A stretch of 15,851 bases of DNA from a virus. Lineage: Duplodnaviria > Heunggongvirae > Uroviricota > Caudoviricetes. The notes beneath the pieces are model-generated. The model ran no database searches. It had not been told where the DNA came from and saw only the letters and a program-made list of their open reading frames with translations. Where the stretch lies: the IMG/VR virus record IMGVR_UViG_2684622669_000012, positions 1-15,851 of that record; one strand, written 5' to 3'. The translations under genes were made by a program, and so were the position numbers. The stretch's first letter is position 1, and each line of letters opens with the position of its first letter. Shown one piece after another: positions 8,022-14,813 of the stretch.

Positions 8022-8634
8022 AGGTGCACTATAATTCCACCCGTTCTGGTTTTCAATAGCTACATTCAACATTTTCTCTACCTTTCATCACCTGAGTGAA
8101 CTTTGTTGATGCGGTGCCTGGTGCCTCCAGGTGACGTTAACCAGTTAACAATTAACGCCGGATGACTCACCCATAACACTCATGTTTTTAACTGTTCCGC
8201 GTGCGCTTAGCCGCATTCACCGCATCACAAAATTCACTTTAAAAAGGGCGGCAGAGCAGTCACGGAGTAAAACTGATACCGCCAAACGCCACCAGAAAAT
8301 TGATAACAGAGGGCGTTGTAGCGGGGTTGTCACTTAAGCGTATGGTCAACCTGACAACCCGGTGTCCTCAACGGGGAAGGAATAACCCAGCCATACTTAC
8401 CGCCGCGCCATTTCGCGGAGTGCCACAACCGGAAGCGCACGGTCGAATTAAATTTAACGACACCGTACAGAGAGACCAATTTCGCCGTGCGCTTTCGCGT
8501 TATGCCCTGGCTTTTCAGGGATATATCCTTTCAGTAAACTGTCAGTACCGGATTCTTATCCGTGTCCGGCGCACGACCACACGTGACAGCGTGTTGGTCT
8601 CCATTTTTAACCCAGAACCTCAATGGAGGATAAA

Positions 8635-8844
8635 ATGCCAAACAAAAAAAGAAATCCGCTTATTGAAAAAAAGATTGAATGCCTGGTAAATCAACTCAGG
8701 CAATCAGGGTTATTAAAAACTCATTCAGAGTTGAGGCTCACAGAATCAGCATTCGACGATAAATTAAATAATGTCCTTTATAATGGCATTATTGATTTTA
8801 ATCGTTCTGTTGGTCGCCGCGGCCCTGCTGGTGTTTCCTTATAA
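8635..8844 (+). CDS. Hypothetical protein (69 aa), convergent with the 216-aa gene
   Basis: ATG at 8635 with GGAGG 5 nt upstream; Lys-rich N-terminus (MPNKKRNPLIEKKIE...); stop abuts the stop of the opposite-strand gene with no spacer. Occupies the position that sieB holds in Rac (memory). Confidence 0.45.
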   Translation: MPNKKRNPLIEKKIECLVNQLRQSGLLKTHSELRLTESAFDDKLNNVLYNGIIDFNRSVGRRGPAGVSL

Positions 8845-9495
8845 TTACCAGTCAATCCAGAGCGGACCGTGTTCAGCGTAAATATAACTGTACACATCCA
8901 GATTATATTTGTGGTCTGTTAAGAACAGGCCGCAAATATATGCCGAAGCTTCCAGGGCAGCGGCTCTGTTACTGAATAACCATGTAGCAACATTCCAGCG
9001 TTTTTCTGCATCCCAGTCTTTCTCAAGGCCTGATACCATGAAGAAACCGTTAGTGTTGCCATCAAATAATTCTGTTTCCAGATTTTTAAGCAATGCCTGA
9101 TGGACTCTTGCCAGGTATTCCGCCGGAATTTCGCCACGAATTCTGATGAGATTGTCATAAACAAACATGTTCCCCGCATATGGCGATTCTTCTTTCTTGT
9201 TTTTTAAACCAGCATCATGAGCAAACTGATCAATTTCTTCTTCCGTTGGTTTCGTATTGATGTTTTGCGCTGTCGTTTCTGCAATTTTATTTGCCACACT
9301 CTCTGAGTCGTGTTTATTTACAGACGCACAGAAATACAATCCGGTAAACGCATCGCGCACATTACGAGCCATATTATCAGTGTCTTTTTTCGTTACCGAT
9401 TCCAATGCAAGTTCGTTCAGACGATGACGAAGTGTGTGTGCTGCAATCTCCTGGATTGAAGTAGGTAAATCTTTAAATTCCATCGTCAACCTCAT
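8845..9495 (-). CDS. Hypothetical protein (216 aa) of unknown function; accessory (moron) candidate
   Basis: Long clean ORF; start ATG overlaps the TGA stop of the upstream 50-aa gene (TGATG); alternative start 4 codons in has a GAGG RBS. No motif I can assign; soluble, acidic, no obvious TM segment. Confidence 0.7.
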   Translation of the reverse strand: MRLTMEFKDLPTSIQEIAAHTLRHRLNELALESVTKKDTDNMARNVRDAFTGLYFCASVNKHDSESVANKIAETTAQNINTKPTEEEIDQFAHDAGLKNKKEESPYAGNMFVYDNLIRIRGEIPAEYLARVHQALLKNLETELFDGNTNGFFMVSGLEKDWDAEKRWNVATWLFSNRAAALEASAYICGLFLTDHKYNLDVYSYIYAEHGPLWIDW

Positions 9496-9647
9496 CAGTC
9501 AGAGTTTCTTGCTAACCAGCGATGCGCGCCAGCTTCGGTTTTAAACGTTTTACTTTTGGTATACGTCATCGCGGTGAACGTGCCGTCCTGGTTGGGAAAC
9601 ACGCCGTACACCAGAGATTCGTTGTTGCCAAGATCGATAGTATCCAT
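9495..9647 (-). CDS. YdaF/YdfA-like small phage protein (50 aa)
   Basis: Below the 60-aa ORF-track cutoff. ATG at 9647 with GAGG 5 nt upstream; product MDTIDLGNNESLVYGVFPNQDGTFTAMTYTKSKTFKTEAGAHRWLARNSD resembles the small proteins encoded just downstream of the repressor in Rac (ydaF) and Qin (ydfA), from memory. Confidence 0.65.
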   Translation of the reverse strand: MDTIDLGNNESLVYGVFPNQDGTFTAMTYTKSKTFKTEAGAHRWLARNSD

Positions 9648-9771
9648 GCTGACCTCATTTCCCCTTAACGCCGGGGGAGCGGAACTAAGACCTGTCGCAC
9701 CGTTGTGCTTTGATGGAATACATTGCTCTCTTTAGGTGAACAAAAGTCAACATGATGAATACGTAAAAAAC

Positions 9772-9794
9772 AAAAAAAACCGCCTTGTGGCGGT
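9772..9794 (-). terminator. Rho-independent terminator downstream of the repressor gene
   Basis: Minus strand reads ACCGCC-acaa-GGCGGT followed by 8 T; lies 22 bp past the repressor stop. Confidence 0.6.
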
Positions 9795-9815
9795 ATGATT
9801 CTGTAAAATAAAGAA

Positions 9816-10205
9816 TTATTTTTGTCGTGTTATTGGGTCGACGTATTCTGAGTAAAATTCAGTCAGTTTTTGGAGTCGCATTTGAAAAGCTGCCAGCATA
9901 TTTCTACGTTCTACAGGTGGCAGGTTTCTGTAAACATCAAGCAGGGCCTTCTCGTCATCATCAAGCGCCTCTCTATTTGTCTCTTCTTTCCCTGTCAGTA
10001 GCCAAGAAAGGGAAACGTTTGTGGCTTCTGCAATTTTGGCTGCGGAATCTTTACTGATTGTTCCTCTTTTTTTCCATGCGTTGACTGATGAACGACCTAC
10101 ACCAGCGATACGCGCTAAATCTGAACCACTTAAATGATGCTGTTGAGAGATCGTATCTAACCTTTCTGCTAGCGGGGTGTCGTATTGCTTTTTTCTCATG
10201 TCCAT
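9816..10205 (-). CDS. Prophage repressor, Cro/C1-type HTH (XRE family), short form without S24 peptidase domain
   Basis: 129 aa; HTH at LSGSDLARIAGVGRSSVNAWKKRG; divergent from the cro-like gene; far too short to include a LexA-like autocleavage domain. Confidence 0.8.
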   Translation of the reverse strand: MDMRKKQYDTPLAERLDTISQQHHLSGSDLARIAGVGRSSVNAWKKRGTISKDSAAKIAEATNVSLSWLLTGKEETNREALDDDEKALLDVYRNLPPVERRNMLAAFQMRLQKLTEFYSEYVDPITRQK

Positions 10206-10308
10206 TTGGCAATTATAACCGTTCAGTGAACACTAACAATTCCTCGAGGTGTTGACTTATGTTCGCTTTAAGTGAACAATTATTGTGGTTAGTTGAACTG
10301 GAGGTTGT
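10206..10308. promoter_or_regulatory. Divergent promoter/operator region (pRM-like leftward, pR-like rightward)
   Basis: Minus strand: TTGTTA - 16 nt - TATAAT ending 6 nt before the repressor ATG, implying a leaderless or near-leaderless mRNA. Plus strand: TTGACT - 17 nt - AACAAT upstream of the cro-like gene. Repeated AGTGAACA motifs at 10236-10248 and 10274-10286, including the palindrome GTTCAGTGAAC. Confidence 0.6.
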
Positions 10309-10584
10309 ATGACAGCATTGGACAAAGCAATAAAGATTGCTGGTGGTATTCGTCCGCTAGGGCGTGCAATAGGGGCTTGGCCATCTCAAATACACAAATG
10401 GGCAAATGAATACAATGGTCGAGTGCCGACGGGAGAACGGGTTCGTCAAATTTATATTGCAACTGGGGTTACTCCTCATGAATTGCGACCAGATTTATAC
10501 CCGAATCCAACTGACGGGTTGCCTGCTGGAGATAAGGCTAACACACCAAATACACCGGAGTTGATTCATGAAAATCAAGCATGA
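10309..10584 (+). CDS. ydaS: Cro-like HTH regulator, YdaS family
   Basis: 91 aa; GGAGG RBS; contains the YdaS-type motif (ERVRQIYIATGVTPHELRPDLYP) as recalled from Rac YdaS; first gene rightward of the operator region. Confidence 0.75.
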   Translation: MTALDKAIKIAGGIRPLGRAIGAWPSQIHKWANEYNGRVPTGERVRQIYIATGVTPHELRPDLYPNPTDGLPAGDKANTPNTPELIHENQA

Positions 10585-10993
10585 ACACATCCGCATGGCG
10601 ATGAATGCCTGGGCGCGTCCTGATGGCGAAAAAGTTCCAGCAGCTGGAATAACCCAGGCTTATTTTGAGTTGGGTATGACGTTTCCTGAACTGTATGACG
10701 AAAGCCATCCGGAAGCTCTGGCTCGCAATACTCAGAAAATTTTCCGCTGGGTGGAGAAAGATACTCCTGATGCGGTTAAAAAAATTCAGGCGCTGTTACC
10801 AGCGATCGAAAAGGCAATGCCACCTTTGCTGGTGGCCAGAATGCGCAGCCACAGTTCAGCTTATTTTCGGGAGCTGGTGGAGACGCGGGAGCGACTGGTG
10901 AGAGACGCTGATGATTTTGTCGCAGTGGCAATCGCCGGTTTCAATCAGATGAACCGTGGTGGCCCGGCAGGAAATGCTGTGGCAGTACATTGA
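10568..10993 (+). CDS. ydaT: YdaT-like protein (CII-position regulator/toxin family)
   Basis: 141 aa; starts MKIKHEHI as Rac YdaT does (memory); overlaps the ydaS-like gene by 17 nt. Confidence 0.75.
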   Translation: MKIKHEHIRMAMNAWARPDGEKVPAAGITQAYFELGMTFPELYDESHPEALARNTQKIFRWVEKDTPDAVKKIQALLPAIEKAMPPLLVARMRSHSSAYFRELVETRERLVRDADDFVAVAIAGFNQMNRGGPAGNAVAVH

Positions 10994-11064
10994 CTGACAA
11001 TAGCCATATCGAATCGCTTCCGGCAACTCGTGAGTAAAAAGATTCGGTATCAGAAGAGGTGAGT

Positions 11065-12135
11065 ATGGCTAACGCCTGGCTCAGATTATGGCATGACATG
11101 CCAAATGACCCTAAGTGGCGAACAATTGCCAGGGTGTCAGGGCAGCCAATTGCAACAGTGATGGCAGTGTATATCCACCTCCTGGTGAGTGCGTCACGAA
11201 ATGTCACGCGAGGTCACATTGATGTCACGACAGAAGATTTGGCAAGTGCGCTCGACGTGACAGAAGAGGTAATTGATTCAATTTTGCAGACGATGCAGGG
11301 GCGGGTACTTGATGGTGATTTAATCACTGGATGGGAAAAACGCCAGGTGCTTAAAGAGGACAACGGCAATATTTCGCAAACCGCAAAATCTCCTGCAGAG
11401 CGCAAGAGGGCGCAGCGAGAGAGGGAAAGAAAGCGGGAACAAAATGGCGATTGTCACGGCGCGTCACGAAATGTCACGCACATGTCACGACGAGTCACGA
11501 CAGATAAAGATACAGATAAAGATACAGATCAAGAAGATCAAAACACTATGGTCCATGGCGTAAAAAACGCCACGAACCAGGCAGGGGATGTTCAGACCGT
11601 CAATCCTGGTCAGCCAGCAGGCACGACACCGGAAGCCGATTCAGCGTATGCGCTGAAAGCCGATTCGGGCGCTGTGCAGCAGGTGATGACCGGAAGGCCG
11701 GAGCAATCACACCAACTGCAGCAGCCTGAAGCCGATTCCGCCATTCAGCGGGAAGCCGATCGGGTAGTCCCGGAAAACACCGGGCAGCCTGTGGGACGAG
11801 TGGATTATCCGGATGTGTTCGAACAGGTCTGGCGGGAGTACCCGTTGCGTGCCGGAGCAAACCCGAAGAAATCCGCTTTCAGTGCCTGGAAGGCCAGATT
11901 ACGCGAGGGGGTGCCACCAGAGGCCATGCTGGATGGCGTGAGGCGTTACGCAAGATATCTGGCGGCTACCGGGAAAACGGGAACGGAATTTGTTCAGCGA
12001 GCGACGACCTTTTTTGGACCGGACCGGAATTTTGAAAACCCCTGGTTGCTCCCGGTAAGCGGCACGAACAACCAGCGTTGTGTGAATCATATTTCTGAAC
12101 CGGATACCGAAATTCCGCCGGGCTTCAGGGGGTAA
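11065..12135 (+). CDS. Replication initiation / replisome organizer protein (O-like) with internal origin iterons
   Basis: ATG at 11065 after GAGGTG (ORF track uses GTG at 11059). Two GTCACG iteron arrays inside the gene encode repeated ASRNVT..VTT peptide segments, followed by an A/T-rich tandem repeat; position is immediately after the cII-like gene. Confidence 0.7.
   Translation: MANAWLRLWHDMPNDPKWRTIARVSGQPIATVMAVYIHLLVSASRNVTRGHIDVTTEDLASALDVTEEVIDSILQTMQGRVLDGDLITGWEKRQVLKEDNGNISQTAKSPAERKRAQRERERKREQNGDCHGASRNVTHMSRRVTTDKDTDKDTDQEDQNTMVHGVKNATNQAGDVQTVNPGQPAGTTPEADSAYALKADSGAVQQVMTGRPEQSHQLQQPEADSAIQREADRVVPENTGQPVGRVDYPDVFEQVWREYPLRAGANPKKSAFSAWKARLREGVPPEAMLDGVRRYARYLAATGKTGTEFVQRATTFFGPDRNFENPWLLPVSGTNNQRCVNHISEPDTEIPPGFRG
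11193..11229. repeat. Iteron array 1: four GTCAC(G) repeats at ~10-11 bp phasing
   Basis: GTCACG at 11193, 11203, 11224 and GTCAC at 11213. Confidence 0.6.
11463..11526. repeat. Iteron array 2 (four GTCACG repeats) plus adjacent A/T-rich 12-bp tandem repeat; candidate ori
   Basis: GTCACG at 11463, 11473, 11484, 11494; first 19 nt identical to array 1 (GCGTCACGAAATGTCACGC). Followed by GATAAAGATACA x2 (11503-11526). Confidence 0.6.
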
Positions 12136-12175
12136 GTGTTTATTTCAGGTCATGAGGTAATTTTCAGGAGGACTT

Positions 12176-12598
12176 GTGGCAAAAGTATTTACACAGGAAG
12201 AGCGAGAAAAAATTAAAGGGCAGGTTGTTGAACTCGTACGCCAGAGTGGGCGTGAGACGTTACGACAACTGGAAGCTAAAACTGGGGCAACAAGATATCT
12301 GATGAGCGTTCTCGCAAGAGAGCTGGTTGCCAGCGGCGATGTATACAACTCTGGTTACGGGTTATTCCCGTCTGAACAGGCGCGTAAGGACTGGCAAAAT
12401 GCCCGTAAAAAGCTCTCAAGGGCAAAGCTGAAGAAACCATCTGCGGTTGATCTGGACCTTATCTGGTCATTACCAGACGGAGAAATACGTCGCTACGACA
12501 GGCGCCTGAATATAATCTGTCGCGAGTGCCGGAAGAGCGAAGTTATGCAGCGAGTGCTGGCGTTTTATCAGGGAAATTATCAGGGGGGCTGTGAGTAA
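12176..12598 (+). CDS. Hypothetical phage protein (140 aa)
   Basis: GTG start with GGAGG 5 nt upstream; occupies the slot after the replication initiator but has no Walker A motif, so it is not a DnaC/P-type helicase loader. Confidence 0.7.
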   Translation: MAKVFTQEEREKIKGQVVELVRQSGRETLRQLEAKTGATRYLMSVLARELVASGDVYNSGYGLFPSEQARKDWQNARKKLSRAKLKKPSAVDLDLIWSLPDGEIRRYDRRLNIICRECRKSEVMQRVLAFYQGNYQGGCE

Positions 12599-12651
12599 AA
12601 TTAGCTATCAGGCTTCAATTATCGCTGGCATTCGCATCAAAGGAGAGGACC

Positions 12652-13008
12652 ATGGAAATAAAACCAGAAGATGAGTTAAGTAATATTGTTTTATTTCCGG
12701 TAAAAGAGGATGACCCACGCAATCAGGTTAATTTTCTTTATGAGCCATCGGAAAGACCATATTGCCATCACGCTTCTGTCCGGGTTGACGAAAAAGTGCG
12801 TCAGGTCCGCTGTAAAATCTGCGGTGCAGTTGTGGAGCCATTTGACTGGATGCTCTCTGTGGCGAAAAGAGAAAGCAGACTGGCAGATGATGTAAGGCTC
12901 TTGCGCCAGGAGGAACGGGAAAGGCGGAGAAATATAGAAAAGCTAATTCAGATTGAGCGTAACGCGAAAGCACGTATACGCAGGGCGGCAAAATCAAGAA
13001 CTGAATAA
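12652..13008 (+). CDS. Hypothetical phage protein with Cys-rich segment and basic coiled-coil-like tail (118 aa)
   Basis: AGGAG RBS; Cys/His cluster (PYCHHASVRVDEKVRQVRCKIC) then an Arg/Glu-rich C-terminus. Confidence 0.7.
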   Translation: MEIKPEDELSNIVLFPVKEDDPRNQVNFLYEPSERPYCHHASVRVDEKVRQVRCKICGAVVEPFDWMLSVAKRESRLADDVRLLRQEERERRRNIEKLIQIERNAKARIRRAAKSRTE

Positions 13009-13103
13009 TTAAATTTAGCACTGTTAAAAATTTAATCCTTAACCGGAGGGATTTCTGCACCCTCAGAACATCAGGAGACCGCCTGAAAGGGCGGTAATGA
13101 AAA

Positions 13104-13667
13104 ATGACTGAATTAACCAAAGAGCAATTAATCGAAGAAGCTAAATTAAAAATAGCGATTGCGAAATGCCATCCCAATTCAGGGATGGCACGAGTAGAGG
13201 GTGAGTTATTCAAAATTGCATTGGCATCGCTGGAAGCAGAACCGATAGCGTGGGAATGCGGCGAAAAAATAATCCTGTTTAATCCTGATATAGTTGAAGC
13301 ATACGCAAAACGTGCGGAGATATCACCTAAACCACTATTCGTCGCTCCACCTGTGCCGGTAGTGCCTGAAGGACTGGTTAAAGCTGTGCGCTTTTATGAA
13401 CAGGTACGGCGTGAGAATCCTCCAGTCGAAACAGGAGCATGGAAAGACGCTGTTGATTGGGTACTCAAAGAGGCCTGCTGTGCTGCCATTCTGGGTAAAG
13501 CCGACAATCCCCCAGCATCCGGCAATCAGGTTAGCGAATTAACAATGTGGGTTAAGCGACTGGTCAGCCAACTGAAAAAAGCTAAGCCGGACTGCAAATT
13601 ACCGGAGAAGGCGATGGACTACCTGAAGCGAAACGGACTGATAAGCGCGGAGGATATTTTGCGATGA
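13104..13667 (+). CDS. Hypothetical phage protein (187 aa)
   Basis: Clean ORF; its stop overlaps the start of the following mini-ORF (ATGA). Confidence 0.7.
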   Translation: MTELTKEQLIEEAKLKIAIAKCHPNSGMARVEGELFKIALASLEAEPIAWECGEKIILFNPDIVEAYAKRAEISPKPLFVAPPVPVVPEGLVKAVRFYEQVRRENPPVETGAWKDAVDWVLKEACCAAILGKADNPPASGNQVSELTMWVKRLVSQLKKAKPDCKLPEKAMDYLKRNGLISAEDILR

Positions 13668-13747
13668 CCTGGCCTGAAGCATTTACAACGGTAGGAATTG
13701 CGATAGCGGTGGCGCTGGTGGTGTATTCGATTTGCCGCTGGGGGTAA
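13664..13747 (+). CDS. Candidate 27-aa single-TM peptide
   Basis: ATGA stop/start overlap with the upstream gene; GGAGGA 9 nt upstream; product MTWPEAFTTVGIAIAVALVVYSICRWG is one hydrophobic helix. Below the ORF-track size cutoff. Confidence 0.4.
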   Translation: MTWPEAFTTVGIAIAVALVVYSICRWG

Positions 13748-13908
13748 GGTATTAAAAAACGCCCCGCACACAGAAGTTGAGCGCCTGAGATATGGGGATA
13801 GGGAGTCAGTTAAATAGTTATGCAACAATACCTGATTTTATATTGAAGCAAGAAATAGGTTGCTACATATTGAATCATGCGCGTGTGCGTCAAATATGGG
13901 AGGTCATC

Positions 13909-13998
13909 GTGCTGGTTCTGAAATGTGCGCTGGCTATTGCGGCTGTAATGGCAATTTATTGTCTTGTTATTGTTCTTATGGAGCACCTTTCTGATTGA
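13909..13998 (+). CDS. Candidate 29-aa hydrophobic peptide (alternative long form 13792..13998)
   Basis: GTG at 13909 preceded by GGGAGG at 5-nt spacing; product (M)LVLKCALAIAAVMAIYCLVIVLMEHLSD; in frame with the 68-aa ORF-track entry, whose own start has a weaker RBS. Confidence 0.35.
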   Translation: MLVLKCALAIAAVMAIYCLVIVLMEHLSD

Positions 13999-14209
13999 TT
14001 TCATATTGGCGAGGTAACGGGAGTTAAGTAGAATGGCTGCGGGTGCTTGAGGCTATCTGTCTCAGGCATGAACACCAAAGGCAGATAGAGAAAAGCCCCA
14101 GTTAACATTCGGCGTCCTGCAAGACGCTTAACATTAATCTGAGGCCCAATCTATGTCTCACAAATGTAGGTTAGCCTCTTACGTGCCGAAAGGCAAGGAG
14201 AAGCAGGCT

Positions 14210-14365
14210 ATGAAGCAGCAAAAGGCGATGTTAATCGCCCTGATCGTCATCTGTTTAACCGTCATAGTGACGGCACTGGTAACGAGGAAAGACCTCTGCG
14301 AGGTACGAATCCGAACCGGCCAGACGGAGGTCGCTGTCTTCACAGTTTACGAACCTGAGGAGTAA
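14210..14365 (+). CDS. hokD: Hok/Gef-family type I toxin (membrane peptide)
   Basis: MKQQKAMLIALIVICLTVIVTALVTRKDLCEVRIRTGQTEVAVFTVYEPEE: near-identical to HokD/RelF as I recall it (one A/V difference). AAGGAG RBS; the ORF-track entry adds an in-frame 19-codon upstream extension. Confidence 0.9.
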   Translation: MKQQKAMLIALIVICLTVIVTALVTRKDLCEVRIRTGQTEVAVFTVYEPEE

Positions 14366-14434
14366 GAGACCCGGCGGGGGAGAAATCCCTCGCCACCTCT
14401 GATGTGTCAGGCATCCTCAACGCACCCGCACTTA

Positions 14435-14456
14435 ACCCGCTTCGGCGGGTTTTTTG
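14435..14456 (+). terminator. Rho-independent terminator at the hok mRNA 3' end
   Basis: ACCCGC-ttcg-GCGGGT followed by a T-run. Confidence 0.6.
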
Positions 14457-14585
14457 TTGTTTATTTTCAAGACGTTTGAGCTTTTTGAAGGTGCCGGAAT
14501 AGAATCAAAAATACTTAAGTAGCGCGCAGGGAGAAGAGGGATGGACCCCTTAAGGGGAAATGTTAAAAGTTCATAGGGTTTTGTT

Positions 14586-14753
14586 ATGAATGATAAGGAA
14601 TTAATTGCTGCGCTTTCTGTACCGGGTAGTTATGAGGTGATAACCCTTGCAAATGGAGAGTTTATTGTAATGCCGTTACCACCCGACGCCATTCTGATCA
14701 CTAAAGAATCTCACATGGATTCTGTCAGCCACTTCTGTATTAAAGAAGACTAA
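14586..14753 (+). CDS. Hypothetical small protein (55 aa)
   Basis: ATG-initiated ORF below the ORF-track cutoff; weak RBS (AGGG 9 nt upstream); no family recognised. Confidence 0.4.
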   Translation: MNDKELIAALSVPGSYEVITLANGEFIVMPLPPDAILITKESHMDSVSHFCIKED

Positions 14754-14813
14754 ATTATACTGGTGAAGCCAGCCTGAACAACTGGCTCCTGTCGCACCAT
14801 TACGAGGGTTGTA

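Follow-up and report, generated by a model that had tools for sequence, protein, structure and literature searches.

We analysed a pair of convergent genes in the IMG/VR virus record IMGVR_UViG_2684622669_000012 (Caudoviricetes); the window studied is positions 1 to 15,851 of that record and represents an Escherichia coli lambdoid prophage of the Qin type (cryptic), integrated beside tRNA-Ser and mtfA. A plus-strand open reading frame (ORF) of 69 amino acids (aa) meets a minus-strand ORF of 216 aa tail to tail, and the last 24 codons of the former overlap a strongly hydrophobic mini-ORF in the +1 frame. An original prediction, made from the sequence alone, had proposed sense/antisense control at this junction and, as a weak possibility, a type I toxin-like peptide. 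We find that the 69-aa frame is almost certainly the coding frame and that codon choice in the 69-aa gene most likely accounts for the mini-ORF, which would then have no function of its own. The junction is probably a plain pair of convergent hypothetical prophage genes, already annotated, and the idea that it conceals a hidden toxin is not supported. By analogy with the Qin prophage of E. coli K-12, overlap of the sense and antisense transcripts is very likely, and a regulatory role for this overlap is plausible.

The 69-aa gene and its reading frame

The 69-aa gene extends on the plus strand from an ATG at position 8635 to a TAA at 8842–8844, and a Shine-Dalgarno (SD) sequence, GGAGG (8625–8629, +), lies 5 nucleotides (nt) before the start codon. 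The distant homologues at loci L094, L097 and L098 also have ATGGAG(G/A) conserved ahead of the start. The gene is annotated in RefSeq genomes by the Prokaryotic Genome Annotation Pipeline (PGAP); the 69-aa ORF is called in every genome examined and the mini-ORF in none. The protein matches PHROG 4274, an unknown-function family, over its full length (E = 7.3e-51, residues 1–69 of 69).

Sequence variation was assessed in 85 loci comprising 28 distinct haplotypes, drawn from E. coli prophages, IMG/VR contigs and a Salmonella element at 75% protein identity. Across these haplotypes the minimum numbers of changes at codon positions 1, 2 and 3 of the 69-aa frame are 12, 9 and 28 in the first 45 codons, and 6, 6 and 18 in the 24 codons that overlap the mini-ORF. 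Pairwise Nei-Gojobori comparisons of the proportions of nonsynonymous and synonymous differences (pN/pS) give ratios below 1 in nearly all informative cases for both parts of the gene, and in the overlap most are well below 1. Read in the frame of the mini-ORF, the same overlap has 6, 18 and 6 changes, the second positions being the most variable, and pN/pS is about 1–2 in most comparisons. The 69-aa frame is disrupted in just two haplotypes, one by a 1-nt deletion and the other by a slip from A7 to A6 in the run at 8644–8650. This run spans codons 4–6 and is A6 in eight IMG/VR loci (L062–L069), with a frameshift after residue 5; a tract prone to slippage, a pseudogene allele and an error of sequencing are all conceivable reasons.

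When 1.84 billion representative proteins were searched with a profile, only a handful of relatives of the 69-aa protein emerged. One homologue, P0159, is 54% identical over 59 residues. The C-termini of P0159 and of a second homologue, P0162, are NREYGRRGPAGVGL and NKEHGRKPPGGVRL, respectively, and both retain the C-terminal motif N[RK]E[YH]GR[RK]xPxGVxL, represented by GRRGPAGV in the 69-aa protein. Because the tail is shared with these homologues, the Gly/Arg/Pro-rich end of the 69-aa frame is an ancient conserved motif. Conservation of each frame had been suggested as a check on which is real, and both the haplotypes and the distant homologues support the 69-aa frame and not the mini-ORF.

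Two metagenomic proteins built of many tandem units of ~73 residues, P0158 (1370 aa) and P0160 (662 aa), match the middle of the 69-aa profile weakly and probably reflect errors that tandem repeats cause in assembly or gene calling. A scan of genome contigs with the 69-aa alignment gave no confirmed relative. The isolated-phage collection contains the leader described below, and the 69-aa gene was not found in it.

Searches of Pfam, NCBIfam and PADLOC returned no match for the mini-ORF, nor for the 69-aa and 216-aa proteins; PHROGs returned only unknown-function families for the two proteins, and a sequence search of the PDB returned nothing useful. The AlphaFold2 model of the 69-aa protein is of low confidence (predicted local distance difference test, pLDDT, 56). 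It contains two helices and a C-terminal tail, NRSVGRRGPAGVSL, and predicts a soluble, helical protein. No match better than E = 0.09 was obtained with Foldseek against the PDB, and hence no fold was assigned.

The hydrophobic +1-frame mini-ORF

The mini-ORF (8771–8881, +) ends at a TAA at 8879–8881. From the ATG at 8783 it encodes the 32-aa peptide MALLILIVLLVAAALLVFPYNYQSIQSGPCSA, and an upstream ATG at 8771 extends it to 36 aa. As first described, this peptide contains a transmembrane (TM)-like core, and it is indeed the most hydrophobic stretch in the window: it ranks first among 128 ATG-initiated ORFs of at least 25 aa, and its 19-residue Kyte-Doolittle maximum is 3.4, compared with 3.07 for the ORF that contains HokD. 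The remark that it lacks a convincing ribosome binding site (RBS) is equally borne out by direct reading, which finds no purine-rich SD sequence within 15 nt upstream of either ATG.

The hydrophobic character can be traced to codon usage in the 69-aa gene. Of its last 24 codons 23 end in T or C, compared with 15 of the 45 earlier codons. The third positions of the real frame are the second positions of the +1 frame, so this run of pyrimidines causes the +1 frame to read Leu, Ile, Val, Ala and Phe; codons for Gly, Arg, Ala, Val, Ser and Pro are read there as GTC GCC GCG GCC CTG CTG GTG.

Third positions of the real frame carry 18 changes at 24 sites in the overlap (0.75) and 28 at 45 sites outside it (0.62), and variation is thus not reduced where the frames overlap. 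With synonymous variation undiminished, the mini-ORF fails the defining test of dual coding. It is also disrupted in natural alleles. At L061 a change from TTT to TTG, which replaces Phe by Leu in the real frame, puts a stop codon in the mini-ORF, and at L075 the mini-ORF is cut to 21 aa. Its length varies among 21, 32, 34, 36 and 37 aa, and Gln enters the hydrophobic core in two minor alleles (the L59 group and L082). None of the distant lineages L094, L097, L100 and L101 has an ATG-started or hydrophobic ORF in the +1 frame, where the best 15-residue Kyte-Doolittle mean is at most 1.15 in distant homologues compared with 3.15–3.57 in the E. coli/Salmonella clade. We also considered whether the tail of the 69-aa frame had been overprinted on an ancestral TM-coding frame. 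This was rejected, as the distant homologues keep the tail motif and have no hydrophobic +1 frame.

Database comparisons of the mini-ORF are equally negative. Five allelic peptides have no exact match in a collection of 15 billion proteins. Against toxin families, Pfam gave only sub-threshold hits to OppC_N and Hemotin (E = 0.04–0.09), and PHROGs, NCBIfam and PADLOC gave nothing. An Rfam search of 8290–9200 at a permissive threshold (E up to 1) found no relevant RNA; it returned one hit to a microRNA family, at 18.6 bits compared with a gathering score of 54. The suggestion of a type I toxin-like peptide therefore finds no support in an RBS, purifying selection, a toxin family or an Rfam antitoxin, and the truncating alleles and the absence of the ORF from distant homologues count against it.

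Several observations count against so simple an account of the mini-ORF. When the codons of the 69-aa frame were resampled synonymously according to the codon usage of the window, the observed maximum of 3.4 was reached in 0 of 20,000 trials and a value of at least 2.5 in 1.2%, for a hydrophobic stretch that was selected post hoc. Since resampling seldom or never reproduces it, the stretch does not follow trivially from the protein sequence. Pyrimidines occupy 20–23 of the 24 third positions throughout the E. coli/Salmonella clade, compared with 11–16 of 24 in distant homologues. This run is statistically odd and genuinely unusual. A rut site and codon optimisation were considered as causes, and neither could be supported. 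By hand count, half of the third-position changes in the overlap are from pyrimidine to purine, and there is therefore no sign that the run is currently maintained. A 13-residue core is hydrophobic in all deep E. coli/Salmonella lineages; the substitutions are few, and the pattern is compatible with neutrality (P ~0.1, hand count). Finally, we found no credible plus-strand promoter for the 69-aa gene, the −10 element of the only hit overlapping the start codon.

Because of this odd run of pyrimidines we leave a small chance that the mini-ORF is an overlapping gene of recent origin, confined to its lineage, whose product would be a small membrane peptide. Such a peptide might act like a type I toxin and be restrained by the antisense transcript of the minus-strand operon, which would exist by geometry. 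The exceptional hydrophobicity, unmatched in the resampling and above that of the HokD-containing ORF, speaks for such a gene, as does the retention of the first ATG and a core of 13–15 hydrophobic residues in E. coli and Salmonella alleles at ~75–85% identity. However, the missing SD sequences, the excess of changes at second positions with pN/pS of about 1 or more, the nonsense, truncated and Gln-containing alleles, the absence from all four distant lineages and the empty family and RNA searches all make this quite improbable. Additionally, the window holds a genuine type I system, hok/sok at ~14041–14365 (sok, 116.9 bits, and hokD), which shows the features that a real one has.

A programmed +1 frameshift is a further alternative. 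A slip at a site such as CTT-T in GTC CTT TAT (8773–8781) would attach the hydrophobic segment to the first 47 residues of the 69-aa protein and produce a tail-anchored membrane protein. In prfB the ribosome slips at CUU-U; the CTT-T here resembles that site and is conserved in all haplotypes, and the +1 frame has its last upstream stop at 8765–8767, so that a shift just beyond it would be productive. However, the A site would hold an ordinary TAT rather than a stop or rare codon, and there is no SD-like stimulator upstream. The tail of the 69-aa frame beyond the slip site is under purifying selection and conserved in distant homologues, whereas the +1 frame shows no such selection, is not conserved and is not hydrophobic in those homologues. 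We consider a frameshift extremely improbable, and a by-product of codon choice remains our reading of the mini-ORF.

The tail-to-tail junction

The stop codons of the two ORFs, TAA on the plus strand and TTA (the complement of a minus-strand TAA) for its partner, abut as TAATTA at 8842–8847 with no intergenic spacer, and both the coordinates and the sequences of the zero-spacer junction are as originally given. TAATTA is kept in 27 of the 28 haplotypes. The exception is L086, which has 1-nt deletions there. The absence of a terminator between the genes, also part of the original prediction, held over a wider interval: a consensus scan of 8050–9700 on both strands found no intrinsic terminator-like sites.

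Tight convergence is also found in relatives of the pair. In three of four distant homologue lineages the small gene overlaps its convergent neighbor by 11, 44 or 53 nt, and two of these three retain the C-terminal domain of the partner. The fourth lineage, L100, has no abutting convergent gene.

A predicted stem-loop of 17 base pairs at 8904–8940 lies within the 216-aa ORF, 60 nt beyond the plus-strand stop codon, and is a candidate 3'-end structure for the 69-aa mRNA (segment z = −4.6). It is the only strong structure nearby. Across nine haplotypes 90.8% of cells are paired, compared with at most 52% for slid controls. Three pairs are altered on both sides, and wobble and compensatory changes preserve the pairing despite differences in the encoded amino acids. 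Because it has no U-tract, the stem-loop would be at most a 3'-end stabiliser.

Antisense transcription across the small gene

The DicF small RNA is encoded downstream in the minus-strand operon (8246–8297, −; Rfam RF00039, 76.4 bits). In the K-12 Qin prophage DicF is made only by processing of a polycistronic transcript from dicBp that starts upstream of ydfA, and an internal promoter was undetected (PMC10448788). If this arrangement is valid here, the minus-strand transcript would have to read through to DicF, crossing the whole 69-aa gene and its leader and not just the 3' end. The plus-strand mRNA, in turn, would meet no terminator before it enters the partner gene. Read-through of the operon and a terminator-free plus-strand mRNA together imply that the transcripts overlap. 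The antisense overlap that the original prediction drew from the abutting stop codons is thus a reasonable expectation from the missing terminator and the K-12 analogy, and its probable extent is larger than was claimed, covering the entire 69-aa gene. Induction of the early-left operon would probably lower expression of the small gene, through transcriptional interference or cleavage of double-stranded RNA.

The leader of the small gene

The 69-aa gene is preceded by a conserved leader of ~65 nt (8570–8634, +) with the motif GTCCGGCGCAC, which is also present at L006, L007, L010, L094, L097 and L098. Predicted folds and the alignment place a first hairpin at 8576–8598 (+), followed by CTCCAT (8599–8604), which is complementary to ATGGAG (8623–8628) overlapping the SD sequence. 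In hairpin 1, L094 (CCCAAC/GTTGGG) and L098 (CCCAGC/GCTGGG) differ by a compensatory change. The two arms that would pair over the SD sequence are invariant, and the loop between them varies. Alternative cargo genes at the site carry the same leader and RBS (8560–8647). From these features the leader may act as a translational gate for the small gene.

The minus-strand partner and its convergent genes

The partner ORF occupies 8845–9495 (−), with its TTA at 8845–8847. PGAP annotates 212 aa from a start at 9483, and the product is named 'Ybl81' in some records. The 216-aa protein matches the PHROG 2151 profile at full length (E = 2.5e-143, residues 5–216). The 212-aa protein has 153 homologues, and the listed sources are all Escherichia or Salmonella plus one unclassified Enterobacteriaceae isolate. 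A literature search for 'ybl81' or WP_001133037 found nothing, and the AlphaFold2 model of the 212-aa protein is of low confidence (pLDDT 59).

The protein consists of an N-terminal part of ~83 aa that is common to other families and a C-terminal domain of ~115 aa that is co-inherited with the 69-aa gene. One hypothesis is that this C-terminal domain and the 69-aa gene opposite it form a swappable module of two genes, an effector and its small cognate inhibitor, which would be compatible with a non-functional mini-ORF. Under such a scheme the small gene would be on in the lysogen, and the partner would be expressed only upon early-left induction, which would also send antisense RNA across the small gene.

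Three comparisons point in this direction. A Salmonella element shares exactly 8548–9188 with the window, a segment that takes in the small gene and the last ~115 residues of the partner, at 83% identity. The genes for P0159 and P0162, which sit in elements of the integrase/helix-turn-helix (HTH)/Cox/Ash type, are again convergent, with overlaps of 53 or 11 nt, with genes whose C-terminal domains are homologous to that of the window protein (33–40% identity, E = 2e-16 and 2e-14). Where the same N-terminal ~83 residues are joined to other C-terminal domains, the convergent small genes are also different, and the partner proteins show domain shuffling: at L006 the small gene encodes a zinc-ribbon-like protein and overlaps by 44 nt, and in the L172 group it encodes a 64-aa protein and overlaps by 12 nt. 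Altogether three contexts pair C-terminal domain A with the small gene and two other C-terminal domains are paired with other small genes. The SD sequence and conserved leader that the small gene has of its own also fit such a module.

However, the linkage has exceptions and is not obligate. At L089, L162 and L166 domain A occurs with an unrelated convergent gene beyond a 162-nt spacer, the small-gene homologues at L100 and L101 have no partner with the C-terminal domain, and an intact small gene at L004 and L005 faces a partner that is annotated as a truncated pseudogene. Neither PADLOC nor any toxin family matches the proteins, and with two low-confidence models the fold search was uninformative. 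We regard an effector with a cognate small protein as a hypothesis, not a finding, and a rather unlikely one at present. In a fuller version, the small gene of 64–69 aa and the C-terminal domain opposite it would travel together as a mobile cassette of the effector/inhibitor type, carried by early-left operons both of Qin-like prophages and of integrase/Cox/Ash-type elements; overlapping convergent transcription would couple the genes, the SD-sequestering leader would gate translation of the small gene, and the operon transcript carrying the partner and DicF would silence it. This we consider less probable still, and doubtful as a whole.

At least four unrelated cargo genes, all reverse-oriented, occupy the site just upstream of the DicF precursor region in different Qin-like prophages (for example L006 1574–1816, L007 1575–1769, L089 3299–3934 and the L172 group). 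They abut or overlap the preceding gene except in the L089 type, with its 162-nt spacer, and in L007, in which a remnant of the partner is 177 nt away. On sequence comparison, the site looks like a hot spot for swappable cassettes.

The prophage and the cassette

The window is 99.9% identical to E. coli EC12 over 701 nt and 99.0% identical to O157:H7 strains over 401 nt. The locus is found in ~600 of 5,426 complete E. coli genomes, O157:H7 strains among them. On the minus strand the order is a CI/DicA-like repressor, a ydfA-like gene, the 216-aa gene, DicF, an isrK/C4/Rha-Ash module, kil and an exonuclease gene. The repressor (9816–10205, −) was identified by a match to an HTH domain, and the ydfA-like gene (9495–9647, −), the first of the minus-strand operon, by a match to DUF1391 (Pfam PF07151, E = 3.5e-29). 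DicF thus lies downstream of a ydfA-like gene, both on the minus strand, with a CI/DicA-like repressor adjoining, which identifies an early-left operon of the dicBF type.

BLAST matches to K-12 Qin are limited to 8097–8575 and 9502–9686. The interval 8576–9501 is therefore a cassette that K-12 lacks; it comprises the leader, the 69-aa gene and the 212-aa gene and lies between the ydfA-like gene and the upstream region of DicF. In strain E9 the same gene pair is located between ydfC and dicF.

The isrK, C4 antisense RNA and Rha-Ash antirepressor-like module (7221–8072 and 7833–8021, −) sits between DicF and kil. Fragments of dicB flank it in related loci, and EC12 does not have it. Judging from these sequences, the module appears to have been inserted into dicB, leaving the prophage without an intact copy.

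Upstream of hok/sok are two TM-like ORFs that are unannotated in the near-identical EC12 record. The first (13664–13747, +) encodes MTWPEAFTTVGIAIAVALVVYSICRWG (27 aa) and begins with an ATG that shares bases, as ATGA, with the stop codon of the preceding 187-aa ORF; it looks like a candidate for a translationally coupled small membrane protein. The second (13792–13998, +) encodes 68 aa.

Comparison with known systems

The mini-ORF resembles the toxins of type I toxin-antitoxin systems such as hok/sok in being a short ORF with one TM-like segment and in having a predicted antisense transcript on the other strand. However, it has no RBS, family match, dedicated antisense RNA gene or purifying selection, it carries nonsense alleles, and it lies wholly within two other coding sequences. 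With overlapping dual-coding genes it shares two long open frames over the same 74 nt, the second of which is unusually protein-like. Unlike such genes, it leaves the synonymous variation of the first frame undiminished where the two overlap. The locus is best taken as a worked example of how a TM-like ORF in an alternative frame can arise from pyrimidine-rich third positions in a tail rich in Gly, Arg, Ala and Val, and of how variation by codon position, together with distant homologues, can decide which frame is real.

In pore-forming colicin operons the immunity gene is convergent and constitutively expressed, and polymorphic toxins have cassettes of C-terminal toxin domains and immunity genes. 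Similarly, the small gene is transcribed against an inducible operon and lies directly 3' of a gene with a variable C-terminal domain, with which it tends to change. However, the prediction for its product is a soluble helical protein and not an immunity protein of the integral membrane kind, the linkage has exceptions, and neither sequence nor fold searches found similarity of the window proteins to colicin, contact-dependent inhibition (CDI) or Rhs domains. The interchangeable pairs of variable C-terminal domain and convergent small gene at this site suggest functional coupling, and are a modest lead for work on cryptic prophages and DicF.

The closest comparison is with the dicBF operon of K-12 Qin (dicA / ydfA-ydfB-ydfC-dicF-dicB-ydfD). 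The gene order and strand logic are the same, with a repressor, the DUF1391 gene ydfA and then DicF, and in sequence the DicF upstream region is 90% and ydfA 93% identical to the window. In contrast, K-12 has no gene on the opposite strand there; the 926-bp cassette of the window (8576–9501) occupies the place of ydfB-ydfC. The annotation of related loci also suggests that dicB is interrupted in the window by the isrK/C4/Rha-Ash module. If the K-12 analogy applies, the reverse-oriented small gene sits, in the ~600 of 5,426 E. coli genomes with this locus, in a stretch that is transcribed for DicF, and expression of the small gene and of the dicBF-type operon may be mutually exclusive.

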